Assembly (NCBI GenBank): GCA_905178155.1 | Contig: CAJINV010000004.1 | Location: 280,969-344,968 of the forward strand | Direction of reading: 5' to 3' | Length of the DNA stretch: 64,000 bases | Source: Amoebophrya sp. A120 | Lineage: Eukaryota > Protista > Dinoflagellata | Shown: positions 1-63,076 of the stretch, in pieces | How positions within the stretch are numbered: the stretch's first letter is position 1 | Layout: each line of letters starts with the position of its first letter | Program-made: the position numbers and the translations under genes | The notes under the pieces: model-generated | Seen by the model: the letters and a program-made list of their open reading frames with translations, nothing else | Told to the model about the DNA's origin: nothing | Database searches by the model: none

Positions 1-261
1 ATCAGGGACGCCCTCCCATAGTTTCCCAACACGAAACGCGCATTTTTCTGCTGCTGTTTGGCCTTTCGGAATGATGTCTAGATGTCGTGCAAACCGCAAC
101 ACCAGGGCAAGAGTTAACTTCTTGAATTCAGTTTGAAATCAGTTTGAAATGAAAGTACAAGACGAGCGGTCTGGAGTTAAGGGCCACACAAAAAAGATAA
201 ATGCGAATTTGCAGCATGGCAAAACAGGCGGAGCAAGAGGCTTTTGCACCCTCATATGGGA

Positions 262-3200
262 AGCCAGTCCACCTTCTGAACGTAGAAGACGGCGACCTCT
301 TTTTCGCGGATCCAGGCGCCATGGCGTGTTATGCGAGGCAAATATGGTTGGGCCTGCTGGAGCGAAAACTTTTGATGCGGATTTCGAAGTAGGCATGTAA
401 AAAATTGTGTTGCAGCATACTCAGCGAACGATGTCGGATTTTTATGTTCACGAGAAGGCATTTCCATTTCTCTTGCAGGCTAGCTATGGAGAAGCTTTGA
501 GAGGACTTGTGATGCTCCGTGCACATTTTTCCAGAGCCTGATGCAGAAGCAAAAACTGCATGACAAACTTTCGCTGTCTTTCAGGCGGCCGATAAATATT
601 TGGAACGCATACTGATCCCGACGGAGTAATGTTCTCCGGTACGTCCCTGGATTGCGAACGCGTTGGGTTGTATCAAATGCAAATATTCCAAAGCTGCTGG
701 AGAGTTGCGGTCCTGAACTGTGGATGATAAAAGCAGTTTCGAATGCAAGCACGTACTAGCGTGACAAATTTGCGGAAGGCTCTGTCACACACAATGCGCA
801 TCAGAAGCTATGTTTTTGCTGTGGCTTTTCTTGGTCCTGCAACAGTACAAATATTACAGAAAAAATATATAATGTAAAGACGAAGAAAGACTGGCATTTA
901 TGAATGCAACAAGTTCCAACTACTTTCCAGACCCAGACGCAGGCACTTTTGCAATGCATAGGCTGACTTTGTTTCGGGCCTACGCAACCAGCAGCTGGCC
1001 CATGCAGTTTGATTTGGGAACATATGGAAATTTCAAGCACTATTTTTCTTGCTGTTACATGATTTGCCATGTTGCAAAATTACGATCAGCCTCTACACGA
1101 TCAAGCTGCTTCGCGCGGCTTGTATGTTGAAGCGCCAAACAGAATGAAGATCTGCTTCGTAAAAATGCAAGACGTACAAGCGGCGCCCGCGCCCCTGCTA
1201 TTTTTGCGCCGCAAACCCAAACTCATGTGAAAAGGTATCAAGCATAACGCTTGAGATCTCCATAGAGCAACAGAGTGTGCGACCGCGACTACGTTCCCGG
1301 TCGGGTGCAGCATGCGGGTCGGGGCCGAGGGTGACAACACAAACAACTACCGGGCTTACTACAACCGGGCCTATATGAAGCCTGCAAACTTCGAAGCCTA
1401 CGCGGACGGGACTTGCGTGCCGCAAAGTTTCATGCCGGTCTGTTCGATGCCGGGCTATCCGGGGAGAATCAAGTATGAGCACGCCAGGTAGGAAATCCTC
1501 AAAATAAAAAGCAAGAAAGTTGGTGACTCCAAGACGACAGCACCAATTGAGGCCGCCATTTCGAACCGGCGAGGGGGAGCTGTGTGTCCGGGAAATGAGG
1601 AGAAATTGCGCAATCCCCCCAGCCCACCCTCATCTATTTTTAGACATGCAAAAATACAAAAACAAACGCATGTCTTGCCTTTGGGCCGTGTGTGAGTCAC
1701 AAACCATAAACAGGATCACAGTCCGCGAGCGGATTTGTCATGCGGAAGTTACGTTTCATTCTGTCGTTGCTTGTGTTGCTGTTCATGCCCTTCAAACGAG
1801 GGCTTATTGCTATTGGACGCGTTGTGAACTCGTATCAAAAGATAAGGAGGGGCGCAGCTTCAAGATTTTTCGGATTGTAGAAACCATGAGACAATAAATT
1901 ACGCAGCTGGCATTTGGGGTTTCCATTCTGAGTGAAACGAGCTGGCAAACCCCAAGGTGTGACGCAGCTGGCTCTGAGCTCTTCTGGCCTTCCTGGACAG
2001 CTGCAGGTGGCAGCGCCTTGAGTTTCTCCGGCCGTGAAAAACTTTACGAAGAGCGGCGCAGCTTTAAGACTTTCCGGTCGTGCAAGGAAAACTACCAAGC
2101 ACAGGGCACCGTGGCGGGTTCGTAGACGTTGCGACGCAGCTGCTGCGAGCTGTTTCGGCCCGGGAAAAGTGTCTCTCCGAGGGGTTCCACAGCTTTGCGT
2201 CGTCCCTTCCTCGAGGCACACGGTGCTCAACCAACGCCGAGCGGGAAAGCAGGTGCGTTGGGACAATCGGCGGGCCGCCAAGCAGACCGCGGCCAGTCAT
2301 ATCGGTCAGCCCCTCGCATAAAACGCTCGCCCGCATATCCCGCATGGCGCGGTCAGGTTTCGGGTTTTTGTTTTGCCGCTCGGGCCTATTTGTCATGCCG
2401 AACGAAACTCGAGAAAGGCGCGGCCAGTTGGGCGCAGGGTATATATTGCCGGCCTCGGTTTTGGGTTCGTTCTGGCGCAGGATATTTTCCGGGGCATGTA
2501 GTTTTCGGGTGTGCCATACGATGGCGCCCGGCTCCCATGATCGGATTTGGCACAAAGTCCGCCGGAAGGCAAAGCCCCACATAGTGCATTCACCCAGGCT
2601 GGCGCGGCTGTTGCTGTGTCTGTGGTCTTCGATGGACAAGGTTGACGGAGTTGCCCTAGGGCCTTTCAGGAGGCGCCCCGCCCGCGGGTGCACACACAGA
2701 GCCCCAGCCCGTGAGAGTATGCTCCATGCCGCGAGTGTTACGCCCCGGAGCACAGGTTGGTAGTCCGCTGCCTGTACTAGCGTCGCCATTTTTTTCATGG
2801 GGCAAACGCAAAGCAATTGCGGGCACACTCGGAAATAAAGCTGCAGGGCGCATTTTGTTGAGCGCCGATGCCGGCGCCACACGCTTGCAGGCGGCCCTGT
2901 TGTGGGCAATTGTGCCTGAATTCTGTAAGGGGGTGCCTTTAGCGGCGGCGAGCGGTTTCTTCAATGTGCTAAAAAGGAAAACGGCGCAGGCCCTACGCAC
3001 GCCAGGGCCATCACCTTCCCAGGCGGCGAGGAGAGGACGCAAGTTCGCAAAAATCCAGAGGGCGCCGCCATGTCCGACCTGCGCCGAGCGATAGGTCGCC
3101 GCGCGGGGGTCGACTCAGTTCCGCGCCGTGTCCAGCTTGTTTATGATGCCTAAACCCGGAGACGGCGCCAGCTGGGCCCGTCATGCATGTTAAGGAGGCG

Positions 3201-6200
3201 CGTTGCAAATTTTTCTGAGGCTCAGAGAAGTCAATCTGTCCGCTGCTGCTGAGGACAAGCGCGCCGCGGATTTCTATCGTGATTGCCTGCCAGCAGCATC
3301 AACGCCATTCCGTGTCTGTCTCGCCCCCTCGTGCCTTCCTTCTTTCACAGCCAGCCGCTTCGGCGGTGGGCGTGTTGGTCGCTCGCTTTGCATCGTTGCG
3401 CGTGTCTTTTCATGGAAGTCAGAACCTACTTGCTTTTCCAGTTTGGGAATTTCCTAACGGACGCTTCCACAGCAAGTACAGGCTCGCCGCCGGCAACAAC
3501 CCTAAAGAAAACGGCAGCTGCAAGGAGATTGCCGCACTCACGGGACGAGCCTGGCGCCCTATCACGAATAGCCACCATTGCGGTCTCGCGGCGCAGGAGA
3601 TAAAAACAGAAAACACGGAACCTAAAATTGAGCCTGAAGAATTTCGGAACAAGATTCTAACGGAGCCTAAAATGGACGGCGTTGACGATAACGAGGCGAA
3701 CTGTAAGCGGGATCGATGCCTGCCGCACACGTATATTCGCGACCGCCCGGGGGGCTGCTATTGCTCGGGCACGACCGGGCAGTGCCATTTCAATAATGGT
3801 GGCTTCGACCGTGATGAGCCAAAGGCGTGGCATGCCATAGGGTATGTTCCGTTGTGCTTTTTGAATGACGACACCTTGCCTGCGGGTGCAGCTGCGGCGA
3901 CAGCGACGAACGCTAAGTATCTTGTGACGGCCGGCTCGCTATCAAAATGAAAAACCTAAACCCCCCTTCCCCATGTTCAAGCGAAATCTGTGATGCGCCG
4001 CGATTTCTGTCCAGAAAGCAGCTTTGTCTTCCGCAGAAGTGGGGTACTGATGCAGGCGGATAAGAATCTGGGGTGGGGTCATTTTCGCGTAGACGCTTAG
4101 CATGAGAGCAGACGCCGGGGCGGGGGGACGGCGCAACAGCATTTGAACTACAACACAACAAATCCCCTGCATATGAATGAATGAATTAATGCACCGGCTC
4201 CGCTGCATCTGGACAATTTACCTTCTTGCAAGACAGGGCACCACGCGATCTGCGACCACAAAAGGGCGCCGCAGATCTTCAGAGGCGTGCTCTGTCATTT
4301 CGGGCCGGGGGGATTTTCCTTACGATACTCGCCTGTGGGAGTTGCTGTGTATCGTGGCGCCGCCGCGGTGGTGCCTGACGATGGACCGGGAGCTCCCGCG
4401 AAATGCGTGCATCCAGGCATCCGATTTTTCCTACGCTGCTGCTCTGACCGCGCAACCCACGTGCCTATGTCTGCGTATGGCTGCGACGACAAGACGGAGG
4501 ACGACAACGGCGTTACCTGTGCTCGGTGCCGCGGACCCTTCTATGATGATACCAACGGAGATCAATTTCTGACCAGCAGTGATGCGCAAAACACCGAGGC
4601 CAGCGGCACTGTCACCTTTCCCTGGACCAGCATGGGACCCGGGCACACGTTGCACACCGCGAAGGCTTACTGCGAAGCGCAGACCTTCGAGGGAACGAAT
4701 CTGCGCCTTTGTACAGACGACGACCTCTTTGACGGACGTGGAGTTCCCGAGAACGATGACTGCGGATTCCATGGGCGGCACATATGGACGCAGACCATGT
4801 GCGAATCCGAAAGTGTTGGCAAAGTGTCGCTGCGGCAAAGTGAAGCGCCACTCACCGGCAACTTTGAAGTGGAAGGCAAGCTCACGATCGGGGAGAAGGA
4901 GAACAACTATGTGACACAATTTACATTGGAGAGGGGAAACCCGAACTCGTTTGATGTGATCTTCCCACACGTGCTCCCTCGGAGCCGCAGGTTCGAGATG
5001 GTGTTCACCCAGCTTCCGGACAACGGCGCAGAAGTCTTCATCCCTTTCGAGGAGGCAAATCTGTACTACATCACAACGGCGGCAGGTTACTCCAGTGACG
5101 CACCAATCACTTGTCCCTACTACAACTCAATGAATTTGGGTTGCGCCGCGCTCTATCAAATGTAAAAGTGTCTGGGTCTGTAAGAATGCAACTTGTCACG
5201 CTAAATCTGAAGCATGCAAAAATCTGTGTTGCATGATTACCAAAAGTCAACCAGTTTTGACCAAGTCGAGAGCGAGTTTCTCACGCAGGATAAGCATGAG
5301 AGCGCTCGCACAGAATCTGTCATGCTACGTTCTGCATTCCAGACCTCGTGGGTCATGGAAAAGCTGCATGACAAACAAGGTCCGAGCACGGGGACAGAGT
5401 CCCCGTGCGGCGACCTTCCGGCATTACATTTGTCTGCGCGGTGGCACTGGCCAGGCAGGTCGCCTGCAGCTAGGTATCTCGGTGCGCCTTGCATTCACTG
5501 ACCCGCGACGGGCCTGCGGACGCGGCCCCCTTGCTTGCGCGCACTAGATTCATTAGCCTGCCGCGCGCAAAGATAAAAGAAAAGAAGAAACTAACTGGCG
5601 CGTGCCGGGCCGGGAGCCGGCCCCCAGGTCATGACGCGGCGACAGAGTCCCCGCACTGCCCTGGGGCTTTTCTCTGCCCCTTCCATCCTCGGCCGCGCGG
5701 TGTGGTGTCCGGGGAGTGTTCGTAGCTAGCCCCCTTGGCCGCACGTTCGTTGTCCGGGAACGAAGCGCCCAAAGCTGGCCCCTAGGCCATGACACGGGGA
5801 CCGAGCAGTCCCCGCGCTGGCCTGGGGCTTTCGCCCCTAACTTGGCCGCACGGTGTCGCCGGGGAGCGCCTGCAGCTGGCCCCTAGGCCATGGCGCGGGG
5901 ACCGAGTCCCCGCGCTGGCCTAGGGCTTTCGCCCCTTGGCAGCACGGCGTCCGGGAAGCGCTTACAGCTGGCCCCTAGGCAATGGCGCGGGGGCAGAGAG
6001 GGTCCCCGCGTGCGCTGGCCTAGGCAGGGCTTTCGCCCTTTTGCCGCACGGCGTCGCGGGAAGTGCTGCGAGCCAGCCCCTAGGCCATGGCGCGGGGGCC
6101 GAGTCCCCGCGCTGCCCTAAGGGTTCGCTTCGCCCCGCCCTTGGCCGCGCGCGCGGTGTCCGGGAAGCGCGCACAGCTGGCCCCTAGTCCATGACGCGGG

Positions 6201-9200
6201 GCCCCACCGAGCCCCCGCGCTGGCCTAGGGCTTTCGCCCCTTGGCTACACGTTGTCCGGGAAGCGCCCTCAGCTGGCCCCTAGGCCATGACGCGGAGACC
6301 GAGTCCCCGCGCTGGCTTAGGGCTTTCGCCCCTTGGCCGCACGGTGTCCGGGAAGCGCCGACAGCTTGCCCCTAGTCCATGACGCGGGGACCGAGTCCCC
6401 GCGCTGGCCTAGGGCTTTCGCCCCTTGGCCACACCTCGCCCGGGACGGATGGAAACGCCAACAGCTGGCCCCTAGACCATGACGCGGGGACCGAGTCCCC
6501 GCGCTGGCCTAGGACTTTCGCCCCTTGGCCGCACGGTGTCCGGGAGGCGCTCCCAGCTGGCCCCTAGGCTATGACGCGGGGGCCCACCGAGTCCCCGCGC
6601 TGGCCTAGGGCTTTCGCACGCCCCTTGGCCGAACGGTGTCCGGGAAGCGCGCGCACAGCCACAGCTGGCCCCTAGGCCATGACGCGGGGACCGAGTCCCC
6701 GCGCTGGCCTAGGGCTTTCGCCCCTTGGCCACACCGTGCCCGGGACACGCCAACAGCTGGCCCCTAGGCCATGACGCGGGGACCGAGTCCCCGCGCTGGC
6801 CTAGGACTTTCGCCCCTTGGCCGCACGGTGTCCGGGAAGCGCTCACAGCTGGCCCCTAGGCCATGACGCGGGGACCGAGTCCCCGCGCTGGCCTAGGGTT
6901 TTCGCCCCTTGGCCACACCATGCCCGGGAAACGCCAACAGCTGGCCCCTAGGCCATGGCGCGGGGACCGAGTCCCCGCGCTGGCCTAGGACTTTCGCCCC
7001 TTGGCCGCACGGTGTCCGGGAAGCGCTTACAGCTGGCCCCTAGGCCATGACGCGGGGACCGAGTCCCCGCGCTGGCCTAGGGCTTTCGCCCCTTCCTTGG
7101 CCGCACGGTCTCGCGTGACAGACTGGGCTTCGGCTCCAAACCTCACATGGCAAAGTCCGAAAGTTTGGCCGGGGTGTGTCCGAAAGTCTGCCCGGGGTGT
7201 GTCCGAAAGTCTGCACGGGGTGTGTCTGGGGTATGTTCGGACTTTTTGCCTGGGGTATGTTCGGGGGTCTGTCTGGGGTGTGTCTGGGGTATGTTTATGC
7301 CCCACCTGTTGGCTTTTCGGCAAAAAATTGCAGTCCGCTCGTGATTGAGGAGCATTTGCATACCCCTGACACACCCCCGAGCATACCCCTCGCCTGCATT
7401 TTTGACCAGCTGCTGCAGTTTAGATAGTAATCTCGCAATCTTCCAGACCCAGACATTTTTGCATTTGATACTCTCCGCAAAGGGGTCGTCTCGGTTGTCG
7501 GCCCGAACCAGGTGCTCAAGTTTGAACAGAAGGCCAGCGTGCGCACGATGCCTGGTGCTTTGAGCGAGTCCTTCGATTATCCCCCACAGTGTATTATCAA
7601 ATGCAAATGTGTCTGGGTCCGGGAGTGTCAGGCATATTCTGTATGACAGCCCATGATTATGATGCCTGTAATGCATGACCTAGCATCACAGATTTTGAAA
7701 GGACTTCCTGATACCTATTCCGCATGAGAAATGCCCTCTCCACGTAACACAAACTGGGCTCCTGTTGCTGGTCATGCGGTACAGATTTTTTTCGAGTCCA
7801 AAGACAGCATCACAGATTGCAACCTTCCAGACCCAGACACTTGTGTAGTTGATATGTACGAACCGTGAACAAAAGCCGGCCAACGTACGGTGCTGTAGTT
7901 GGAACGGGTTCCAACGTCTGGACGACGCATCGGCGGATTATGGAACTGTCAGGATCGAAATAGACAAGGTCGAAAATAATTTTGTAATGCATAAAATGTA
8001 GGAGTAGGGCACGTATGGCCTGTGTTGGGAGCAGGCAATAAATGCGACCGATTGCATTTGCAAGCCTGTTTGCGGGGAGACAATGCGCTGCCAGAGTAGC
8101 ATGACGGGAGCAGTCTTCTTTGCCCAAACAGCACCACGCACGGGATTTTGCCGCTCCCGAAATTTGTCACGCGCAAATTAGGAACTGCGTTCCAATTGCG
8201 TCGGTTTTATGCGTCAGAAATGATTTCGATTTTGGTGATTTCGATCCTGACGATTCCATACGGATACGGTCAAGTTTAGTGTCCGGCTGGACATGCGGCT
8301 GTACGCAGGGCAACGGGAATCGAAGGGGTGCAGCGGCTTGCGGGGGCGTTCCTACAACGACGCAATCGAAATTTGCGAGTACTTCGGGTTTACGCTGTGC
8401 ACCGAAGTCGAGGTCAAGGGGGGGTTTAGCCAAGACACGGGGTGCGGCTTCGATGCCAGTCGAATTTGGACCAATACCGCCTGCGACCCCGCGGAGCTAC
8501 CCTGGTACCTGAACGATGTAGACGCGAACCCCGTTCCGAGGAACGAGATGATCTTCCTCGCAGATGCGCACCTGACCTGCAAAAGGGCGGAGAGTGGCGT
8601 GGACCACGCGTTTTACGCAAAAACCGACTACGTGGACATCAGTGCTTACACGCCCGAGGGCCCCAACAAGTCCTACGCAGCGGGGGCGCTCAACGAGGCC
8701 CTCTCGAAGTGCCTTCAGGACGAAAGCTGCTGCTACGTGAACGCGGCCGGATACTCGCAGAGTGCCGAGCAGTTCATTCGAAGCTACGTGGTGCGGCCTA
8801 GCTACATGAGGCTGGAGTGCACCTTCACATATGGCCCTTTTGGGGATGAAACCTACATGGTGAGCTTTGCGAAGGCGCGATGCTTCGACTACATCTCAGA
8901 GGTCACCTACCTCGCGCGGGCGGACGGAAAGCAAGTCCCGGCAGGAACCAGCCGGGTGACCGGACTGGTGACGGCGGCGAGCGCCCGAGCGCTGCCCCTG
9001 GAGGGTTGGGGACAATGGGCTTACGCCGCCACGAAGTGCTGGGCAGATCCGGCACTATCAATGGAAGTGTATGCGAACCACATGTGCGACGGCATGACTT
9101 ATTTCAGCAAGGTCAACAAGGAGGGCTCGCGGGCGGCTTTTGGCGGGTACCCGGTTCGCCCAGGCCCGAATGTGGGCAGCTGCGTGGACACCTGTGCTCT

Positions 9201-45237: not shown

Positions 45238-45929
45238 ATGCAGCCCCCAGAGAAAGATCGTCGCTCCTGGTCCTCAGCTTACAGCACTACAAGCAATGTT
45301 TTTGAGTCCGCCGCTTCACCGCCGCGCAAAGCCGTGGAGGACAAGAAGGGCGACGTCAAAGGAACCGCTGGTGTTGCATATGAGACGGGATCGGGATCGC
45401 GACGCTGTCAGAACTCCTCTGAAATAATGAAAAGACCAAATCTCTGCGAAGTATCGGGAGGGCAGGGCTTGGTCGCCGAGCCTCGACTTCTCTGGCGGCC
45501 AACCCTCCGCACTGGATCGACGCGGACTTCCTACGGTCATCAAGCAAGCCACGCGTCGGCGACCTTGATACCCGCCACCAAGAACTACAAGCGATTTTCT
45601 GTTGCCGCAGATCGAGAAGGTCGCGAAGCAACTACTACATCAAACTGGGAGCAGCCTGCAAGAGCCCCATTGGGACGAGCAGCAGCTCTAATGGATACGA
45701 CGAGTAAGACCTGCATGCGTAGGACAAGTTTTACCTTGGGTGATGGCGGTGCAGTGTCGACGCAAGCGAGGCCCACCGCAGCTCCGGATGATGAAGATGC
45801 TAACGTCGACCACAAAGGATCAGCCACAACAGGTGGCTCAACATGTCAGCTTAGTGGAGAAAGTGCACGAGCAATTGGACCTCCAGAGCGTGAGTCAATG
45901 CATAATTACCGTGGCACAAAAGATGGTGG
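45238..45929 (+). CDS. Gene 2 probable first exon, low complexity
   Basis: ORF 45238; joins in frame to ORF 46096 across element 45930-46146. Confidence 0.6.
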
Positions 45930-51900: not shown

Positions 51901-54900
51901 TGCATCAGATGAAGGATTAGTGCTCCTTTCATGCACGACAAGAAGTTTGCATTTGGAAACTTCGCATCACAAATTTTTGCAAATTTGGCGGTGGGGGGCA
52001 CTTTTCGCTGTAACAGGGGGACCAGCGGTAATTCGGTGGTACTACAAGAGGCCCGGACACACGTATCAAGTGCAAAAGTGTCTGGTTCTGGAAGGTTGGA
52101 GCTTGTGACGCTAGCTTTGGAGTCTAAAAAAATCTGCATTGCACGATCAGCAAGAGGAGTCTAGTTTGTGTTACGCGGGGAGGGCATTTGTCATGCGGAA
52201 TATGCATCAGGAAGCCCTCTAAAAGTCACGCATTACAGAAATCGAAATTCTGGATCATTCATGCAAAATATGCATGACGAACACGAATCTGGCAATCTTC
52301 CAGACCCAGACATTTTTGCATTTGATAACACGGTGGAGACTGCAATGCAATTTTGCGAGCTTTGGAACATGCGACTCTGCACGATCGAGGAGATCTACAC
52401 TGGGGTCGGGGTTCCCGATGAGGACGATTGTGGATTTGACAGCCGTCACATCTGGACCAGCACCGTCTGCCCGCAGGAGGCATTGGGCAGCTTCGAGCTA
52501 TTCGCACTGGGCCAACAAGACACCGAAGCCAGCATCATTCTGACGGCGAGAGGTGTGCCAGAGACAATTAAAATAACCGCTGGCGGTGGTTCGAAAGAAG
52601 CCGCTTTGCCCCAACATATCGAAGTGAAAGCTGCTCCTACCCAAGACAGGGAAAGCGTTTGCATTGCAAGATGGAAACTCTCCCCGTTTTGCATCTTCCG
52701 GCAACACAGATTCTTCTTGTTCTTCATCTAGGAGAATGTTGGTAAAAGCTTGTGTATGTGCTGCAAAAAGTAAAAGAACTAGCACGCGCTCGCGCAGAAC
52801 TCCTACCAAAAGATGCGTGCTGCAATTATGCCGAAGGTGCCGCTAACGAAGAGTTGTAGTCGATCGACGTGTAGCTATAGATGAAAAGTTTTTCATTATG
52901 AAATACGAAAACCTTATGCAGTAGAAAACTTTCCCAATTACGGTGCTGGGTCGCTTTTCATTCTGATACAAACCCTCGGGAGAAGTCTCAAACTCACCAT
53001 GAAGTTCGAAAAGTTGCCTGCCGGGATGCGTATCGTGTGTAAAAGCGTCCCCACCTCAGACTTATCACGCAAGTCTACAAATCTGAAAAGAAATGCGTGT
53101 CTCTCGCATGCGCTCTCGCCACCCCGGAGGGGGGCCATTGTCATTGAATTTCTTTAAATGCTATCAGGGAGATGAAGTTTATCTTTATTTTCATGCTAGA
53201 AGCAGGATACGCCGATACATTGATGTCTATGCGATCTCACTAGCTACAAATACACAATTCCACTGCAAGACTAAGCACGTCATCCGGGTGGACTACTTGA
53301 ATTTATTTTTTCTGATCGGTAGCAAAATGCTCGTCTTAATAACGCTGCGTACGGATGGGGACGTTTTTCTTTTCCCTCAGGATAATGCAAGAGGTTTACC
53401 TAGACCCAGACCAGGCCTCGCAGTACTACATCACCACTGCGGCCACCTACGAGGACATGACGTCGGACACGTCCATCATCTGCCCCTACTATAATAGCGA
53501 GGGACTGGGCTGCAACGCCCTGCGGTCCGGGGTGCTCTCCGTAGTTGGCGTCGACAACGAGATCAAATTCGAGCTGAAGGATACCGTCTTCACGACGGCA
53601 GGGTCCCCCGCCTTTCGGCTGGACTACCCCAACGAATGCACGTCTCGCAAGAAGGCGACGGCCCATGTGCGGTGCTGCAGCTGGAACAAGTTCCAGGGGT
53701 TAGACGACGCCAGCACGAAACTGGAGCAATACAGTGTGAAACTTTCGATGCAGGTCTATTGCGGGTACAAGTACTGCGCCGCGCTGAAGAAGCGCACCTA
53801 CGACGAAGCCGTCGAGCACTGTGAATACTTCGGCTTCACGCTGTGCGAGTTGGAGGAGGCCTATCTCGGCGTGCCCGGAGTTACCGGCTGCAACTTCGAC
53901 CAGAGCCGGATTTGGACGAAAACCGCGTGCACGGGCGGCGAGCTTCCGCTTCACCAACAGGATCCGGGGCTCGCGCCGCCTCCGCGAAACGAAATGGTCT
54001 ACCTCGCCGATGCGCATCTGTCCTGCCTGCGCGTGGAGACCGGGATCGACCACCATTTCTACGCCAAGTTTGACTACCTCGACTTCACCGCCATTGCGCC
54101 GATGGCCGCAGACCGGTCCTACGCCGCGCAGGGTTTGCACGAGCCCCTCACGGAGTGCCTGATGAACTCCGACTGTTGCTACGTGAACGCCGCAGGGTAC
54201 CTCGGTTCCGCGGAGCAATTCGTATCAAGTGTAAAAATGTCTGGGTCTGGAAGATTGCAATTAAATCTGCAGCATGCAAAAATCTGTGCTGCATGATTGC
54301 CAAAAGTCGTCCAGTTTTGACCAAGTCGGGAGGTGGTTTCTCATGCAGGATAGGCGTTAGAAAGGTCTCGCAGAATCTGTCATGCTAGGCCCTGCATTCC
54401 AGACCTCATGGGTCATGGAAAAGCAGCATGACAGACAAATCGCGCACTCTTCCAGACCCAGACATTTTTACATTTGATAGCTCGCGCGCTTGTACAAGGT
54501 GGACCCTGCCTACATGAACCTGGAGTGCACCTTCACCTATGGCCCCTTTGGGGACGAGCAGTACATGCTCAGTTTTGCGAAGGCCAAGTGTTTCGACTAC
54601 ATCTCCGAAAACACCTTCGTGATGCGGTCGGACGGAAAGAAAATTCCGACGCCCGTGGGTGTGCACGCGAAAGGGAAAATCAGCGTGCAGACCGCGAACT
54701 CGCTGCCGCTCGCCGGCTGGGGCCAGTGGGCGTACGCGGCTACCCAGTGCTACCTCGATATTTCCTCGGCGGTGGCGGTGCACGCCGACTCGCTGTGCGG
54801 GGGCACGACCTACTTCAGCAAAATCAACCAGAAAGGGAAGCGCGCCGAACACAAGGACGACGAGGGCAACGAGTCTTATCCGCTGCGGTCGGGCCCGAAC

Positions 54901-57900
54901 GTGGGCAGCTGCGTGGACACCTGTAGCGTCACTGAAAACCAAATGAACTACTTCGAACTAGCGCGCCTTTCTCCTGAGGCGCACAGTCCCGCACGCTACA
55001 TGGGTTTCTGCTTGAGTTCCGCAGATATGAACCGGCGAAACCTACAAAAGGAGGAGGCCGAAGGCAATGTGAACGAAGTGTGCGTGAGCGACTCCACGGG
55101 AAAGACCAAAGGGGGGGAAGGCGGGCAGTGGAGCTGGATCTTCCAGAAACGGTTTAACAACGACGACTTCTTTGAGGAAGTCACCACCACGACCACCCCC
55201 AAGCCGGACCCGGGCGTTCCCGGGGACGTCCTTTGGAAGTGGACGCGGATGAGCGAGATGCCTGGCTTCAGTGGCGCATGCTCCTACGACGAAGGAGCCG
55301 TGCTGGTGTTGCAGTCCCCTTTCTTCGTCGATGAGTTCAACCTGAACTGGAACGATATGGCGTTTTCAACTGTTACATTCTCAACTGTTACATGAATTTG
55401 TCATCCAGAACTACCATCAAGATCCATACGTGGAAGCTGCTTCGCATGACAAATTTGCGAAGAGCTAAACAGCGCCTAAATCTGTGCAGAACTTGTAATT
55501 ATACAAGAGGTGAACACGCTCCACACGTAAAAGGTTAGGCTTGTCGCTTTTCGCTTCTTTGTCTTTCTATTCGCACTGTAACGCTACACTTGGGGCCTTG
55601 AGCGTCGACCTAAACCTTACGAAAATTCCAATCGTAAAGCCTACTAGTATGCGGCCTTGCAGCTTTTTTCAGAATGTCGCTGAGAAGAAAGCTGTCCATT
55701 TGTCTTGTCCGATGTGCCCGCTTTATCGTGTTTTGCATCACACATGCATGATGCTGCATTCGTAATTCAATCGCAAACTGAGCACCAACATCAAAAACAT
55801 CTTTGCGCTCACAACTCGAAAGCAAGAGCTTCTTTTTATTCGCCGCTTGAAAATAGTAACATCTTTACAGTGGAATTTTCTGAGGATTTGATTTGTGCCT
55901 TCGATCGTCATCATCTTCTTCTTCTTTCTTTTCTTCATCGCTGTTTCTTCGATTTTGGAACGAGTGGAGCGCGTTCATCTTCTTTTCTGGTAAAAAATCC
56001 ACCCGCGCCGTACCGTTGCGAATTCAGACGCGTTAACTGGTAGAGCTTCATTTTGTGCCTCCTTGTATTGTGTCGCCCAGCCTTCCGCTCCGAAAAGTTC
56101 CCCTTCGTAATGCATTGCCGTTTTGTAGGGTGCGATGCGTAGCCCGCACGCCTCCGGATTTGTGCCCCGGAATTCTTAAAATATAAACATAGCCTAGGAC
56201 TGGCGAAGGGATTTATTAGTTTTAGTGTCGGAACTAGTACCGGATAGCGCCTAGCTAGGATTTCAGCAATTTTACTCGCCCGACCCGTGGCCGGGCTTCC
56301 CGTATCTTTTTCTCTAGCTGGTGTCTCATCCGCTTGCGTTTCGCGTAGCAGTGGCAATTTCGCGCGAACTTTTTTGCTACTCCGGCGGGCCCACTGGTCA
56401 CGTCTTATGTGTGTCTCGACAAAAACAGCCGCGAGCTGTTTCACCCCTTCAAGAAAATCGGGCAGCGTATCAGAGTACCGCAAAAACCGCAGCACTGCGC
56501 TGCCTGCCACCGCAAGTGCTGTCTTTCTATGTGTGTTCGAGTCCAGCCATATATGGAAATCGGAAAACCTTGAAAGAGAAACTATTCCGCTTTTCATATA
56601 GCCTTATCTGCGGTCTGCCCCCCTGGTAATCGAACAAGTCAGGTCCATGAAGTTAACCCGGCGCCTAGTGTCCTTCGAGTCTTTTTCACATTTCAGCGCC
56701 CCGTAGACTTTTTCAGGCAAAAGCTAGCTCCGGACTGTTCACCGTCAACAGGTCGTCTATGAATCGAAAAACATAGCGGAAATTCCTAGCGTAGTCCCTT
56801 GCGCTTCTTGTTCCGCCTAGCAGCTTTACTAGGAGGTGCTGACACTCTTTGCGCCACAGGTATAAGCTTGCTACCAGCGGCCCGGGGTTTATCCCGATCG
56901 GAATGCCGGTCGTCTGCTGGCAAAGGAATTTGCCCAGCCCCATCACATAGGCGCTATGTGTCATCAGCTTGAAAAGTTCAAAAACTTGCCTCCTATTTAG
57001 CGCAAACTCCGTCACTGGTGGAACTTTACCACTAGAGTCCGCGGGCGGGTTTTGGTCTATCGGTTGCGAAGTCCATCGAACATCGCGCCGCCTTGTTTCG
57101 CCGTACTCTTTTGGCGCTGACTGCTACGCATGGCCTACTTGGCATGAAGGCAAACTTGAAAACCCAATCAAATTCTTCTCGCGAGTCATCCTGGTCCAGC
57201 ATCGTGTATAAAGTCGAAAAGTCATAAGTCGCCACGTCCTGCACTCTGTGAGTGGGCCGCTTCGCTAGTTGGTCCAGTACTTCTATCGAGTTTTTTAGGA
57301 CCCAAGAAAACTTCGCCACCCCGTCGACTCCTTTCTCTTCGCAGTATTTCTAGCTAGAGGCGCAGCCTCCGTGTAATGTTAGAGGTGCAACCTCCCGTCT
57401 TTCACTTTTGCAATTCTTCTTGCGTCACAAATTCATGTAACAGTTGAAAGTGTAATAATTGAGAACGCCATAAGCGACCTTGTCGACCCGTACACGGGAA
57501 TGATGGACTTTCGGTCAGCCACCGCGTACTGCAAGGCGCTCTACGACTGCGCCTACGTCGTGGAGGACACGCCGGCCGGGACGGACGGAGACGAGTGCAC
57601 GCTCCTCCGGATAGATACGGTATACAGTGCCAAGGAACTGTATGGGAGTGTCAGGATCGAAATCGTCAGAGTTGAAATAAATAAATTTGTGATGCATAGA
57701 GCGGGCACCTGTCGTGTTGGCGCCTAGTTGTAGTTTTCAAGTGGCGCATGACAAATTTGGGTAGAGCTGAAATCCAGTTTGTAATGCTGTTTGGGTAAGG
57801 GAGACGCCTGCCGTCATGCTGCTTCAGCAGCTCAATTTCTACCCCGCAACAGGCTTGCAATCTGCATCCCTTGCGTCCTCTGCAATAGAGGCAATTGCTG

Positions 57901-60900
57901 CGTTGCATTTTATGCATCACAAACTATTTCAACTGTGACGAGTTCGATTCTGACGCTGCCATAAACTGGACGACGAGGGTGAGGAAACGGGGAAGTTCGT
58001 GAAGAAGACGGGCCCCTGGAACCAGGTCAACGTCGTCAAGTACACTACGGACGACAAAATGGCCCCGACATACCAAATCATGGGATTTCCGGAGAACCTG
58101 GCCCTTCCGTGGGAACAGATTACCATGAAAGACTCGGGCGATTCTTCGCACAATGCGACGGCTTGTTTGCAGCAGGAGGGGTTTGACCCTTCGCAAGCCA
58201 CTCTAAAGGACGCGGTTGCTGAGACCGCGGACCAGGATGCGCTCCAACCCTTCGAGATGCTGAACCAGCGAGGCTGCGTAAAAGCTTTCCGCATCTGCCG
58301 GTCCGAGCGGATGCTGGTGGACAAGAAGGGCCGCAAGTGCGGGTTGCTGAAGAAGGAGTCCCGGTACTCCACCGAAGTGACGTCGCACCACTACCTGGCT
58401 GCGACTCTACACCCGTACGTGAAAAGCGACGCCGAACTGTCGAGCGAATGCCTCGTAGTGGACAGCCTCCGCGAGGCCTTCCGAGCGTGCGTAGAGCGAC
58501 CCGGCTGCCTCTGGATCTACGACCAACTCTGCCACAGCAACCTGCGCGGCTCGCCCACCCGAATGGTCTGGTCGGACGAGGAGCAGGCAATCGTGAACCA
58601 AATCCGCGTAGACGCCGGCATACACTGGTACATCTGCCCGCGTATGGTCCAGATTGACTCGCCGGATCTCGAAACGACGGCCGTGATTGACGTGAACACC
58701 TTCCGGGACTGCGCACTGAAAGTCGAGTATCGCCTGCAAATATGTTGTCTGGGTCTGGAAGAATGCAAGATGAAGATTGTCATGCGAAGTCTCCAGCGCA
58801 AAAAAATCTTTGTTGCATGAACCCCAAAAGCTGCTAACTTCTTGCTAGGCAGAACCAAAAAGCGGATTGCTCATGTGGGATAGGTATCAAAAAGGCCACG
58901 CAGGACCTGTGAATCGTCTGTGTGCAGCATTCCAGACAGTGCGTGTCGTGGTCCGCGAGATGCATAAACAAATCTTTCACTCTCCCGGACGACCCAGACA
59001 TATTTACAACGCATATCGAGCCCGAAACCCACAAACTGATCCTGCATCCGCAGTGGAGCAAGTGCTCCGCGCAGGCGGATGACGTCGTGGGGAAGGACGC
59101 GGCGGCCAAGAAGAACTACGTGCGGTTGGGGCAATGCACGGCCTTCGCAGAGAACCGGGCACAGGGTAGCGACGAAGCCGGGGAGGACTATATCGGCGCA
59201 GACCCATCGGACCCCGGCGCAGAGAAGGGGAAAACTTTCCTCACGCTGCCATCTAAAACCACTCAAAACACGGCTGACTACAAAAGTGGAAGTGCCAACC
59301 CCGGATCAGTGCACCAGAGTTCGACCGATACAATGGTTGCCGTTGACGAGTTCACGGTGACGCTGGACAACTGCGCGGACTTGTGCAAGAAACTGGAGAA
59401 CGAGGACGACATGGGCAAGTCCTGTGGGGCCTTTGCCTTCCACAAGACAGGGTGGAAGACGGGAGACATGCTGGAAGAAGACGGATCCGACAACCTGTGC
59501 TGTACTTTGTTCCGGAAAGACGCCTGTGACGTGATGCAGGGGGGCTCCTCGATGGTCCTTCCGACGGGGCAGGATCAGTTGCTGTACGAGATGGGGCTCG
59601 GCTTCCCCGCGGGGATGAATCTATGGCACGAAAAAACTATTACTTCTGTTTCACTGTGATACGCATTTGTTCGCGCGATCTGCTCACTTCTTGTATCACA
59701 AATTTGTTCCGCACATGTCAAAGGACAATCAACATCTAGCATGCAGCGTGCTTCCAGCCTTCCAAGAGTAAATGTAAATAAGTGCGATGCTTTGCCTTTC
59801 TAGCAAGACAAACACTTGCGCGTGGCATTTTCGGCATCACAAGTTCAAGTTCGTCCTAGTGAAACAGTTTTTTGCTTCCGATAAAAGCTGGAGGCGGTCT
59901 ATTACCAGCCCGGGAAAAAAGAGCTGCAGGATTTGCCCTGGCAGTTCTTGTACGAGGGCGTGCGGTATCAAATACAAATGCAAATATGTCTGGGTCTGGA
60001 ATATTAAAGATGCAGATATCTGTCATGCATGTTTACGTTTTGCATGGCCTTGGCCGCCCATGTCTGCAATGCTGCAGGGGGAATTGCTTCGGTCTAGGAA
60101 TGGGCCCATTCGTTCGGTCCCCAGTAGATAGCCCCACAACAGGACTCGCCTATGTCGGTCCTTTGTATGTTTATGCCAGGCGTTCTTGGTTGGGTTACCC
60201 GGTCGGCACAGCCGATCCACCGATGACGATGCTGCAGGCTCTAGCATCCCAGCCTCAGCAGGGCCTATGTGAAAAATGCGATGTCTATCCCGCATAAGAA
60301 GTGCCCTCGTCCCAACAGCATGCTCCAAAGTGGACATCTTTTCCTGGTCTTGCAAGGCAGATTTTTCTGTGACGGGCCACAAGCAGTAGCAGAAGCATTA
60401 GAATATAAGTTTCCTTTGTTCCTCCAGACGCAGACAGCACACTTGCAATGCATATGTGGCACTACATATCTCACGAAAAAACTGTTTCACTGTGATGATT
60501 TTGCAAGATCTGCATCACAAGTTTGTTACACATGACACAGAAAATTTGCCATGCGCGCTTCCAAAGGGAAAACACCCCTAAAGAGTCAAGGTCTTGCAGG
60601 TGTAGCAAGACAAATAGTTCTGTGTTCCATTCTATGCGTCACAAGTTCACAGTGAAGCAGTTTTTTCTTGCGATACTACGCTCATTGGTATTACGAACCC
60701 GGGTTCGGAGGCAACACGATTCCCTTTTTCCGAACTGGACCGGCCGAAGTATGGAGTTCTCAAATGTTACATTCTCAATTGTTGCGCGAATATGTGATGC
60801 AAAAGCAGCAATAGGGAAAGGGGCCGGCTTGCAATTCTCGCATCACAAATTCGACACAGATTCAGATGCTGTTTAGCCCTTCGAGAATTTGTCACGCGAA

Positions 60901-63076
60901 GCGGCTTGATGGTCTGACGGCTCATGGTCAATCTGCATGACAAATCATGTAACAGCTGAGCATGTAACGCTTGAGAGCCCCATATGAAGCCCCCGTGATA
61001 ACAAGTCTAGATGGACAGCTGAGGATACAGCCACTTGAGCCCGAAGCCAGCGGACAAATATCAAGTGCAAAAATGTCTGGGTCTGGAACAAAACAACTTG
61101 TCATGCTAAATCTGAATGATGCAAAAATCTGTGTTGCATAATTACCAAAATTACAACGAACGATAATTACCAAAAGCTGTCCACTTTTGACCTAATCGAG
61201 AGGCAGACTCTCATGCAGGATAGGCATGATAGAACTCTCACAGAATGTGTCATGCTATGTCCTTCATGCCAGAGCTCGTGGGTCATGGAAAACCTGCATG
61301 ACAAGTCTGGCATTGTTCCAGACCCAGACATTTTTGCAGTTGATAGCAAAGGTACGAGATCTATAGTCGGCGTCGGAGGCGACCGCAATCTGGGGGAGGG
61401 GAAAAAGATAAGCAAATTGAGGGCGGTGGGCCCGGAAGCGGCAATTCGAACGAATTCGAATTTGTGGGTCCGGCGAACGCCGAGCCGATTCATTCCGAAG
61501 ACCTGTATGATAGCGGGAGGTACTCGGTTTTTTATAAAGTGAAGAATGAAGGAGAGAAGAATGATGACATCGACGTGCTAAGTCTCCCGCGAAAAGCAAG
61601 TAGCAGCCCCAATCTCGGGTCACCTTTTGCGTGGAGTACCTGGGAAACGTTGCTTCTGGACGATGAGAAGGGGAATCCAAAAAGTGTTTCGCTCCCCCAG
61701 CAGGTCGAACTTCGGGGGTCGCTCCTGCGCCAGGAATCGGATAACCAGCCACGCGATCACGGTCTAGACCTCTATGTCATGGCCGACGACTGGACTGACG
61801 GTCCCTATAATAACCGCCGACGTCGACGCTGGTGGTACCCTGTTTACGACAATGATCGCCGACGTGCGGAGCGCTGGACACGCGACTACGGGTGGTGGGA
61901 CGGAAACGGCAGGGCTTGGCATCCTCTGAGCAATCCCATTGAAGCCACTAAGGACTGGCAATGGGGCAACTGGGCGCGCCAGGGGCTCTGTTCGCACTGT
62001 CGTAGGGAAAACCGAGGCTACAGCGCGCACGTGTACGAGTTCGTCCCCCCTGTGCCGGTCTACGCCATGCGGATCTCGAACCGAAATGTCGCAAAATACC
62101 GGCTAGACTACTCCAGGGTGTTCTACAGGTCGACGGACGACCATCGCCTCCCAGACAATAATGGTGCAGTTCGCGAAGACATTGTACCGCAGTACATATT
62201 GAGAGGAAAAAACCCCCCTCAACATATCAAAATGGAAGTCTGTGATGCGGGATTTGTATACAGCGCAAATCATTTTGTCATTCTAGAAGGTAAGAGATGC
62301 GGACTGTAGCGCTGGCTGGCGTGGGAAAGCCCAAGCCCTGCGTCTTCAGCATGACAGGAAGCAACTGGAAACGGGAAACAGCAAAAGAAATTGCCTGCAA
62401 ATAAGGGAGCAGGTGCGTCTCTTGGCTTTCTAGCAATACGAGCCGACCACTCGTGTACTCAAATACAGCAACACAAATTTTCTTTTCGCTAATATGGGGA
62501 GGGGGGACGTTTCCTCACGATAGTTCTACGGCCGATGGAGATGCGATATCACCAGAAAAAAGTGTTACACTTACACATTTGTTGGAGTTTCTGCATCACA
62601 AATTTTCTCTGTGTCGCAAGGAAAACTTGTAATGCGAATATCATACGGGAAAAACGGAAAGAAACGAGGCTCCCAAGCATTTCCTGCATGAGAAAGGTTG
62701 TCTGTGTTGCCGGTCTTGCAACACAATGTGTAACTGTAACACTTTTTTCTTGCGATATGCGACGGTGGAACGCGAGTCTGGAGGCGACGAATTTGCAAGG
62801 GCGACGACTATCAAATGTAAAAATGTCGGCCTCTGGAAGAATGCAACTTGTCATGCTAAATCTGAATCAGGCAAAAAACTGTGTTACATGATTGCCAAAG
62901 GTTGTGCACTTTTGACATAATCGAGAGGCAGTCTCTCACGCAGGATAGGCATTGGAAAGGCTTCGCAGAATCTGTCATGCTATATCCTACATGCCAGACC
63001 TCATGGGTTATGGAAAACCTGCATGACAAGCCTGGCAATCTTCCAGACCCAGACACTTGTGCAATCCATAACGACG
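45238..63076 (+). CDS. Gene 2 (3'-partial): paralog of gene 1 with a long Ser/Thr/Arg-rich N-terminus and one hydrophobic segment
   Basis: Exons: 45238-45929, 46152-46740, 47051-47439, 47606-47966, 48206-49911, 50177-51706, 52021-52063, 52333-52616, 52974-53030, 53390-54222, 54485-55355, 57478-57640, 57969-58727, 59021-59621, 59889-59965, 60460-60466, 60681-60749, 60990-61058, 61351-62196, 62528-62546, 62763-62808. Phases are consistent. The start codon, junction 47440 and exons after 62196 are less certain. Confidence 0.8.
45930..46146. mobile_element. Introner, family A
   Basis: TCTGGGTTTGGA / TCCAGACCCAGA; TSD GGTGG/CGAGG. Confidence 0.8.
46741..47045. mobile_element. Introner, family A
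   Basis: TSD TTCCT/ATCCT. Confidence 0.85.
47967..48200. mobile_element. Introner, family D
   Basis: TSD GACCA/GGCCT; frame joins. Confidence 0.75.
48206..49911 (+). CDS. Gene 2 exon with hydrophobic segment AAAGMLLLSVAALVVDGAVL and Ser/Thr-rich region
   Basis: ORF 48104-49954; joins as DFHLPHSP|GMAFCDYG. Confidence 0.82.
49912..50171. mobile_element. Introner, family D
   Basis: TATCG..CGATA; TSD TCACC/CCGCC. Confidence 0.8.
50177..51706 (+). CDS. Gene 2 exon, Cys-rich modules
   Basis: ORF 50085-51773; homologous to gene 1 exons from 262 to about 4600. Confidence 0.93.
51707..52015. mobile_element. Introner, family E
   Basis: About 50-bp imperfect TIR; perfect TSD GGGGG. Confidence 0.9.
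52064..52327. mobile_element. Introner, family A
   Basis: Perfect TSD ACACG. Confidence 0.93.
52333..52616 (+). CDS. Gene 2 exon (MRLCT..DDCGFDSRHIWT)
   Basis: Aligns with gene 1 exon 4333-5153. Confidence 0.9.
52617..52968. mobile_element. Introner, family E
   Basis: TSD CAACA/CAAAC. Confidence 0.8.
53031..53384. mobile_element. Introner, family E
   Basis: CGTCCCCA / TGGGGACG; TSD ATGCG/ATGCA. Confidence 0.85.
53390..54222 (+). CDS. Gene 2 exon
   Basis: ORF 53355-54296; aligns with gene 1. Confidence 0.92.
54223..54479. mobile_element. Introner, family A (near-consensus copy)
   Basis: About 32-bp near-perfect TIR; TSD ATTCG/GCTCG. Confidence 0.93.
54485..55355 (+). CDS. Gene 2 exon
   Basis: ORF 54490-55395; aligns with gene 1. 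Confidence 0.92.
55356..57472. mobile_element. Introner, family C, carrying a nested retroelement
   Basis: TSD AACGA/AGCGA; removal restores WND|LVDP. Confidence 0.9.
55500..57371 (-). mobile_element. 5'-truncated, frameshifted Penelope-like retroelement (reverse transcriptase pseudogene)
   Basis: Minus-strand motifs TYDFSTLYT, QTTGIPIGINPGPLVASLYL, FRFIDDLL, VNFMDLT and LYEKRNSFSFKVFRFP in shifting frames; TSD TGTAAT at 55494-55499 / 57372-57377. Confidence 0.85.
57641..57963. mobile_element. Introner, family B
   Basis: Perfect TSD AACTG. Confidence 0.92.
57969..58727 (+). CDS. Gene 2 exon
   Basis: ORF 57999-58820; aligns with gene 1 from about 9790 to 12080. Confidence 0.92.
58728..59015. 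mobile_element. Introner, family A
   Basis: Perfect TSD TCGAG. Confidence 0.92.
59021..59621 (+). CDS. Gene 2 exon, PAN/apple-like (TLDNCADLC..CGAFAF..CCTLF)
   Basis: ORF 58922-59659; aligns with gene 1. Confidence 0.9.
59622..59883. mobile_element. Introner, family D
   Basis: TSD GAATC/AAAGC; removal restores GMN|LEAVYY. Confidence 0.82.
59966..60454. mobile_element. Introner, family A
   Basis: TSD TGCGG/TGTGG. Confidence 0.88.
60467..60675. mobile_element. Introner, family D
   Basis: TSD CTACA/CTACG; leaves a 7-nt exon at 60460-60466. Confidence 0.88.
60750..60984. mobile_element. Introner, family C
   Basis: TSD CGAAG/TGAAG. Confidence 0.9.
61059..61345. mobile_element. Introner, family A
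   Basis: TSD ACAAA/GCAAA. Confidence 0.92.
61351..62196 (+). CDS. Gene 2 exon, start of lectin-like domain
   Basis: ORF 61464-62309; GYSAHVYEFVPPVP matches gene 1 GYTAHVYEFVPPVP. Confidence 0.9.
62197..62522. mobile_element. Introner, family E
   Basis: GAGGAAA..CCCCCCTC / GAGGGGGG..TTTCCTC; TSD GTACA/GTTCT. Confidence 0.75.
62547..62757. mobile_element. Introner, family D
   Basis: Perfect TSD TGCGA. Confidence 0.9.
62809..63070. mobile_element. Introner, family A
   Basis: Perfect TSD ACGAC. Confidence 0.92.

Follow-up and report, generated by a model that had tools for sequence, protein, structure and literature searches.

The closest described relatives of the elements analysed here are the introners of Amoebophrya sp. 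A120. In the passages of Farhat et al. (2021, PMC7789003) available to us, these are inverted-repeat sequences of many families, about 240 nt long, which start with TAT, are flanked by direct repeats of 3-5 nt and are removed from transcripts, with RNA support, without a GT-AG rule. The same passages report no clear splice signature and give the borders as variable or unknown and the mechanism as unknown, while the legend of their Figs S21-S23 puts 1-5 nt between repeats and splice sites. Gozashti et al. (2025, PMC12130899) list a "5-bp TSD, TA/TA termini" (TSD, target-site duplication) and describe an A120 introner family 38 of about 810 bp with integrase-like open reading frames (ORFs) and, in the main text, no Ginger termini or TSDs; splice sites are tallied there, not resolved. 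We analysed a window of 64,000 nt from A120 contig CAJINV010000004.1 (positions 280,969-344,968, forward strand), in which two genes, A (258-41077) and B (45238-63075), are interrupted 65 times by such elements. The organism, the gene (gene A encodes residues 238-2839 of P0001, a 2,841-residue A120 protein) and the anatomy are those of the Farhat introners, and the elements, their anatomy, the organism and the removal on RNA are already published. What is likely to be new is the exact position of the cut together with a three-base, strand-specific signature, which points to a loosened spliceosome: in contrast to the published account, the border here is fixed (4+1), and U at +2, A at +3 and A at -7 of the intron are invariant. 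Neither a fixed 4+1 register nor a branch-like A is stated in the full-text literature searched (subscription papers excluded), although part of it may be present in Fig. 3 and Figs S21-S23 of Farhat et al.; neither is contained in the available passages of PMC11453091, PMC12005148 and PMC12787238.

Three more distant systems share parts of this arrangement, as described in excerpts of the papers cited. The introns of Fritillaria borealis derived from miniature inverted-repeat transposable elements likewise carry terminal inverted repeats (TIRs) and TSDs and are removed by an adapted U2 spliceosome (PMC11282704, PMC13326754). They prefer the ends AG-AC and AG-AT and are accompanied by a duplicated U2AF and altered N6-methyladenosine on the small nuclear RNAs (snRNAs), whereas in A120 the terminal G positions and the AG are free. 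The nonconventional introns of euglenids share the TIR hairpin, TSD-like borders and non-canonical ends, with Y|R borders, pairing of CAG at +4..6 with CTG at -8..-6, and circles without a lariat (PMC11282704). Neither these borders nor this pairing is found in the window, where +2 lies opposite -5, base identity is constrained and the border bases are free. Entamoeba invadens provides a precedent for a near-fixed branch position, with an adenosine at -8 from the 3′ site (10.1101/2022.06.08.495308), but it retains GT-AG and a full branch motif where A120 would retain the A only.

The 65 complete interruptions comprise 44 in gene A and 21 in gene B, besides which an unpaired right end lies at 256 and an unpaired left end at 63077. 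End profiles and reading frames resolved 62 of them from the window alone (41 in gene A, 21 in gene B), and for the remaining three junctions (13428, 25443 and 31353) the right end was set with P0001. TAT and ATA form both tips in 49/62 elements, and the left arms show the A-run that the published introners carry some ten bases in, with A at positions 11, 12 and 13 in 39, 39 and 55 of the 62, the TATGG families lacking the full A-run. Flank identity peaks at a length of 5 bp (0.80), against 0.24-0.32 for lengths of 2-4 and 6-10 bp; the two TSD copies are identical in 21 elements and agree at 4/5 bases in 25, 3/5 in 11, 2/5 in four and 1/5 in one. A strict scan for TSD plus TIR returned 13 pairs where 10 shuffled sequences yielded 0-1 each, and a relaxed scan 43 pairs where 3 shuffled sequences yielded 3-10. 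Duplication of the TA itself, in the style of Tc1/mariner or of internal eliminated sequences (IESs), was rejected, the duplicated 5 bp lying outside the TA. With TIRs, a constant TSD, both orientations and no ORF, the elements have the properties of TIR DNA transposons that are non-autonomous; host, TAT-starting TIRs, direct repeats of 3-5 nt, families and absence from transcripts are those of the published introners. An earlier annotation made from the letters alone (the sequence-only reading) had described two genes cut about 65 times by TA..TA inverted-repeat elements with 5-bp TSDs, more than 20 of them perfect, in all three phases, and had taken them for Amoebophrya introners. The present counts (phases 19/21/25 over the 65), identity with P0001 and the published description bear this out, as they do its four examples (7939-8260, 10220-10461, 10505-10613 and 52064-52327), each with a perfect 5-bp repeat and TA..TA ends. 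Its single TSD length is general with the exception of one element with 8 bp (23106-24478). Of the at least six TIR families it proposed, strict blastn recovers three multi-copy clusters (7, 7 and 5 members) beside 46 singletons, and motifs define four end classes with 15 elements unclassified.

The position of the cut can be read from the imperfect TSDs, which show which copy survives. Excising each element with 5 nt leaves no stop codon in either gene, and excising it with 3, 4, 6 or 7 nt leaves 50-87; as +2 and +8 nt also give only 0-3 stops, the frame by itself sets the removed length modulo 3 only. With k as the count of bases retained from the 5′ TSD copy, the mRNA takes bases 1-4 from the 5′ copy and base 5 from the 3′ copy (k=4), and the intron of each element extends from its start-1 to its end+4. 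Deletion of the element plus one copy, as formulated in the sequence-only reading, is thus correct in length, while the cut falls between bases 4 and 5 of the duplication. The gene model was built first and P0001 fetched afterwards; in the k=4 register gene A agrees with P0001 along 2,602 residues, without a mismatch and with a single surplus residue (exon 8266-10218, 100% identity). Each of the 23 informative matched junctions is compatible with k=4; k=0, 1, 2, 3 and 5 are excluded by 19, 14, 11, 5 and 10 junctions, respectively. For three of the 23 the right end had been set from P0001; without them k=3 is excluded by three and k=5 by seven. Among individual junctions, those of 330-611 and 21583-21900 exclude k<4, those of 7595-7854, 15606-15882 and 15934-16262 exclude k=5, and at 37902-38218 k=4 is the sole fit to P0001. 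Two other placements were rejected, namely retention of one TSD copy in full, be it the 3′ one (k=0, ruled out at 19 junctions) or the 5′ one (k=5, at 10), and use of nearby GT-AG sites, since only 17/62 elements have an in-frame GT..AG within 8 nt of both tips.

P0001, whose underlying A120 gene models are transcript-driven according to the available part of PMC7789003, lacks all 44 elements of gene A; even introns that reach 6.1 kb and hold tandem arrays are missing from it. For gene B, three contigs of run X1, taken for RNA by guess, break at four element edges, with junctions read from match coordinates. The matches begin at 53385 (element 53031-53384, k<=4; the AG just inside its end is not used) and at 57475 (55356-57472, k>=2), end at 57635 with 29 letters left over (57641-57963), and extend up to 59622 before departing (59622-59883, k>=4), bracketing k to 4. 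Exon pieces stand at depth 3-4 in X1 and some exons have zero depth, so that its gaps carry no proof. Retention of the elements in transcripts, which the sequence-only reading had named as evidence that would overturn it, is therefore not what P0001 and the X1 contigs display. One fixed register fits removal regardless of family, orientation and target sequence.

In this register the introns read N-U-A...A-N6, with T at +2, A at +3 and A at -7 in 65/65 each. The base at +1 varies (G27/A16/C14/T8) and -2 and -1 are free. Introns starting with GT number 27/65 and those ending with AG 5/65, in place of the GT and AG of U2 introns, and two (30392 and 45930) read GT..AG by chance; the earlier claim of no GT-AG introns thus stands as the absence of any conventional intron, with these dinucleotides as the reservation. 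As the tips are symmetric (TAT..ATA) at insertion, later changes reveal the positions that are required. All 13 tip variants in the 62 independently resolved elements lie at the mirror positions +4, -6 and -5 (13/13, Fisher p=2e-4) and none at +2, +3 or -7. They are left tips TAC (11669, 15606, 37902, 45930 and 47440) and TAG (21583), and right tips ACA (1474, 20813 and 51707) and ATG (15934, 16312, 21948 and 38271).

Both window genes lie on the plus strand, and related loci were sampled for this reason: 139 metagenome-contig matches gave 138 loci (581 kb) with elements about 90% like those of the window. A scan blind to the tip bases found 359 candidate elements, 292 with a perfect 5-bp TSD, of which 174 were oriented by ORF (99 minus, 75 plus), 104 by neighbours and 81 remained unoriented. 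In the ORF-oriented set 9 of 10 tip variants fall at tolerated positions (8/9 without L002, a doubtful pair). Among the neighbour-oriented elements 7/9 retained variants do so, four poor pairs (L036, L044, L052 and L070) and two nested copies (L001) having been dropped from 15; both L001 copies have forbidden tip changes, as expected where the constraint is absent. Overall, 32 tip variants were counted. The asymmetry tracks the gene and not the element, because one family lies 19 times forward and 20 times reverse relative to gene direction. The kinds of change are informative as well: A>G, which is G-U compatible, occurs at -5 and is found at +3 or -7 in one nested copy only, T>C occurs at +4 and -6 and is found at +2 in one nested copy only, and changes at +4 and -6 that produce A-C mismatches are tolerated. 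What is constrained is the identity of the base, not pairing. No pattern of covariation between +1 and -1 was evident by inspection, without a formal test. In the accessible part of PMC7789003, Table S4 gives all 9 predominant non-canonical classes as NT-NN in A120 and all 9 as TT-NN in strain A25, whose introner repeats begin TTA; 18/18 published predominant border classes with T at +2 agree with the signature. Separately, the nearest oriented neighbours within 3 kb in the related loci share a strand in 128/128 cases; many lie in the same gene, and gene clusters running in one direction would also fit.

Taken as a whole, we consider it probable that a U2-type spliceosome, freed of the need for +1G and AG and counting from a branch A at -7, removes the elements on RNA. 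A fuller version, in which the spliceosome reads a three-base code (U+2, A+3 and branch A at -7) with no need for +1G or AG and is guided by the transposon's inverted repeats in the place of U1, we favour slightly. The tip TAT would supply a donor equal to the organism's GUA donors at +2 and +3, U+2 being the base held by U6, and the first A of the closing ATA, to judge from its conservation, would be the branch adenosine. The 3′ cut would be counted seven bases from this A and not read as AG, and the inverted repeats would join the ends and substitute for U1, either by forming a hairpin or by acting as bound motifs; the repeats must help, because three bases are too little information to specify sites in a 6-kb intron. 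Since TAT..ATA is identical from either strand and 1+4 adds up to the length of the TSD, insertion anywhere and in either orientation would restore the mRNA. Folding pairs both arms in register in 42/52 introns.

The native introns supply a comparison. The gene for RNA polymerase II Rpb1 at a related locus (L055, 190-10030) carries 7 elements and 7 GT-AG introns in a 1,536-residue frame 77% identical to P0002. Segments that match the homolog contain four of the elements, and another element is probably nested in a canonical intron (~5574-5812). The canonical donors are GTA in 7/7; the element donor N-U-A therefore equals the native donor without its first G. In the yeast P complex, as described in the excerpt of 10.1101/212811, G+1 pairs with G-1, A-2 with the branch A and U+2 with A51 of U6, and Slu7 is dispensable when branch point and 3′ site are less than nine nucleotides apart. 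Given these pairings, it is coherent that +1G and AG should go together while U+2 stays: the second step would be relaxed, with one adenosine at a fixed short distance retained as well. In A120 itself, the passages of PMC7789003 report U2, U4, U5, U6 and 83/89 spliceosomal proteins, with U1 snRNA undetected.

Several observations weigh against the loosened spliceosome. The branch A is assigned from conservation, and lariat, branch point and snRNA dependence are unobserved. No U2-type consensus precedes the -7A (-9 is C28/G19/T17/A1), which is predicted to be mostly paired (mean unpaired 0.23 in the 52 folded introns), and canonical introns give no clear -7A signal, an A standing there in 4/7 in Rpb1 and in 14/58 of a noisy ab initio set. 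Residual AG preference does not exceed the mirror control (AG 20/174 vs CT 13/174). G-U wobbles show no excess on the sense strand (62 v 61, 112 v 114) and thus give no sign of selection on an RNA-level hairpin. Three non-nested elements of the related loci have forbidden tips (L023 TTT, L051 TTT and L053 ATT). RNA evidence is thin, consisting of three contigs and four edges from a run of guessed RNA status, and raw reads of X5 and X6 covered no window exon, matching only repeat copies from other loci (187 and 1 reads). Finally, at the young long-TIR element 23106-24478, with its 8-bp TSD CTACACGG the sole exception to the rule in the comparison with P0001, P0001 is without the additional residue expected from the ruler, and N-T-A and A(-7) do not occur together in any register. 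The first 48 bp of its arms are identical and the arms are alike over >100 bp, with TAT..ATA tips and no coding domain. Its behaviour may reflect an A at -8, TSD matching or its absence from the RNA-sequenced cells, and a different transposase possibly moved it. The L023 element (5233-5477) lies in a well-supported plus-strand frame, and its left tip TTT, which violates +3A, may be an assembly error, an impaired intron or a genuine exception.

Pairing of the arms in register in 42/52 folded introns and a geometry fixed relative to the stem tip could also be the mark of a non-spliceosomal RNA system, an endonuclease with a ligase or a separate machine, that recognises where the TIR hairpin ends and cuts in a stagger, 1 nt ahead of that end and 4 nt behind. 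The undetected U1 snRNA of A120 (PMC7789003, in the part available), the absent U2 branch consensus and the euglenid TIR introns that yield circles without lariats (PMC11282704, excerpt) fit such a cutter. We nevertheless regard it as unlikely: the invariant bases are those that the spliceosome reads and they stay fixed while their pairing partners vary, N-T-A..A(-7) persists in P0001 at the three junctions whose TSD is gone and whose arms are weak or disrupted, and most of the spliceosome is reported in A120. Because the invariant bases look like what is left of the ordinary spliceosomal code, we treat a separate non-GT-AG machine as a rival and not as the best reading. The general non-GT-AG system of the sequence-only reading survives in that one rule serves all elements; it is modified in that the system reads sequence (+2U, +3A, -7A) much as a spliceosome does. 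Less probable again is a spliceosome whose 3′ cut is placed by matching the duplicated sequence, with A(-7) bound by a factor instead of acting as branch point. Matching would explain the 8-bp-TSD element, where keeping 7/8 bases gives a G|GTAT donor and the residues of P0001, but the register persists at TSDs decayed to 1-2/5 (330, 11278, 21948, 13428, 25443 and 31353).

Ciliate IESs have TA-bounded ends and are removed precisely, and the elements resemble them in both respects. Stage-specific excision of DNA would then restore the genes, an explanation to which we give very little weight. Contigs of X3, a DNA-like run at ~43x, pass the element borders unaltered, and unique element interiors are covered at 44-72x against 43-55x for exons; the absence from expressed DNA that defines a ciliate IES is thus not seen in this one DNA-like run. 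Furthermore, the cut and the constraints track the gene strand, unlike a symmetric transposase reaction, and RNA splicing is favoured over IES-like DNA excision. Equally hard to credit is that annotation or strand-biased mutation has produced register and asymmetry as artefacts while the true junctions slide, for although the legend of Fig. 3 in Farhat et al. calls splice positions variable and unknown (PMC7789003, passages available), the read support of single P0001 junctions is not visible and tip variants are few (32 overall), the model predates retrieval of P0001, X1 separately gives k=4, each mutation type has an internal control site and the published boundary classes are all +2T.

Genes A and B are tandem paralogs encoding very large Cys-rich proteins, and both exceed the window limits, gene A starting upstream of it and gene B running on beyond the left end at 63077. 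Gene A has 45 exons in the window; gene B is a single frame of ~3,340 codons across its 21 elements, with a long N-terminal part rich in Ser/Thr. Identity between the paralogs is 49.8% across 1,800 aligned residues, and 69/72 Cys are conserved, with dN 0.48, dS ~3.3 (near saturation) and dN/dS ~0.15. Judged by this ratio both genes are functional, and the value near 1 that the sequence-only reading had named as a second ground for abandoning it is not found. The paralogs have no insertion position in common (23 and 12 junctions in aligned columns), and the insertions are therefore later than the gene duplication. The host protein matched no Pfam family, its sole sub-threshold match being F5/8 type C (galactose-binding) at 27265-27603, and searches of Atlas and Rfam gave no match.

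All elements are given on the plus strand, with TSDs as 5′ copy/3′ copy or as one sequence where perfect, and tips only where they deviate from TAT/ATA (above). In gene A, perfect TSDs flank 3940-4327 (CTCGC), 7939-8260 (CGGAT), 10220-10461 (TGTTC), 10505-10613 (GCGAA; at 109 bp the shortest), 10994-11247 (GTGGT), 12086-13333 (CGGAA), 14783-15017 (GACCT), 15135-15381 (ATTGG), 15422-15571 (CGACG), 28264-28683 (GCATC), 28757-29298 (TTCCG), 29624-29792 (GTCGG), 30392-30626 (CGAGG), 30961-31305 (GAAGC) and 38271-40373 (CCGGC). Differing copies flank 330-611 (CGTGT/CTGAT), 671-960 (GGTTG/GGCTG), 1023-1264 (GAACA/GAGCA), 1474-3471 with nested DNA (TCAAG/GCAAG), 5154-7470 with a 92-bp tandem array (CGCTC/CTCTC), 7595-7854 (TGTAT/TGTAC), 10688-10960 (CCCTG/TCCTG), 11278-11617 (AAAGA/GCCGA), 11669-11990 (CGCGA/AGCGA), 15606-15882 (CAGAA/CAAAC), 15934-16262 (CAGAC/CCGAG), the 4.1-kb 16312-20406 with an element nested at 20072-20290 (AAAAG/AAAAA), 20473-20761 (GCGAC/GTGAC), 20813-21159 (GTGTC/GTGCC), 21318-21558 (AGGCA/AGACA), 21583-21900 (TGCCG/TGCTG), 21948-23092 (TGTTT/CGCTA), 25780-27259 (CTTGG/GTTGG), 27605-27757 (CGAAT/CAGAT), 27843-28183 (AAGGG/AAGGA), 29345-29566 (TTGGC/TCGGC), 30041-30356 (TGTGG/TTTGG), 37902-38218 (CGCCG/CGCTC), 40380-40651 (CGGCG/CGGCT) and 40734-41000 (GTGCA/GGGCA). 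Of the three with right ends from P0001, the rearranged 13428-14758 and the degenerate 25443-25639 have lost the TSD and retain N-T-A..A(-7), and 31353-37496 is a 6.1-kb composite with tandem arrays and a probable nested element at 37244-37483. At the 3′ end of intron 13427-14762 lies a direct duplication of ~65 bp (~13725-13790 / ~14712-14777), and its original right end has apparently been replaced by ATT, with an A still at -7. Tandem arrays inside introns occupy 5762-7094, 19197-19716, 33826-35698 and 36073-37008 (units 92, 68, 450 and 65 bp).

In gene B, perfect TSDs flank 51707-52015 (GGGGG), 52064-52327 (ACACG), 57641-57963 (AACTG), 58728-59015 (TCGAG), 62547-62757 (TGCGA) and 62809-63070 (ACGAC). 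The others are 45930-46146 (GGTGG/CGAGG), 46741-47045 (TTCCT/ATCCT), 47440-47600 (GGGCC/CGTTC), 47967-48200 (GACCA/GGCCT), 49912-50171 (TCACC/CCGCC), 52617-52968 (CAACA/CAAAC), 53031-53384 (ATGCG/ATGCA), 54223-54479 (ATTCG/GCTCG), 55356-57472 with a 1.9-kb nested insert (AACGA/AGCGA), 59622-59883 (GAATC/AAAGC), 59966-60454 (TGCGG/TGTGG), 60467-60675 (CTACA/CTACG), 60750-60984 (CGAAG/TGAAG), 61059-61345 (ACAAA/GCAAA) and 62197-62522 (GTACA/GTTCT). Where adjoining elements have overlapping TSDs, exons of 1 nt are predicted, at 40378 after 38271-40373 (P0001 agrees) and at 63075 after 62809-63070, followed by the left end at 63077; further micro-exons measure 7 nt (60459-60465, predicted after 59966-60454) and 8 nt (23097-23104). 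Some 175 raw RNA reads of X5 that come from a different locus include the left 80 nt of an element (window 61058-61137) and then continue in unrelated sequence; they represent a retained or truncated element copy in a transcript, perhaps of another strain.

A search for transposase ORFs, suggested by the sequence-only reading, came back empty: Pfam scans of 140 window ORFs, of 128 among the 324 long locus ORFs and of 78 shorter ORFs of long elements brought up no domain of a transposase, integrase or recombinase. The published candidate for a mobiliser is the integrase-like ORF of family 38 (PMC12130899); unlike in that family, no integrase-like ORF turned up among the ORFs scanned from the window and the related loci, and the elements would be mobilised in trans by an integrase-like transposase, as the work of Gozashti et al. 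2025 suggests. The 1.9-kb insert nested in 55356-57472 (~55497-57365, minus strand) contains a broken frame with DVATYDFSTLYTML. We take this to recall a reverse-transcriptase motif; the frame had no Pfam match.

How most introns of this organism are removed without GT-AG has been a question since 2021, and the fixed register and the three bases make it testable while providing an exact rule for the annotation of intron borders in A120. They also explain how a transposon can flood exons at almost no cost, with 44 insertions in gene A and 7 in the Rpb1 of a relative. If the spliceosome is what acts here, the near-universal pairings of G+1 with G-1 and of A-2 with the branch A would be dispensable in a living eukaryote. 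If the three-base code is true, insertion into exons would be scarless at the mRNA level, at any site and in either orientation, and A25, whose tips are TTA and whose borders are TT-NN, would fit that donor code as a second case.

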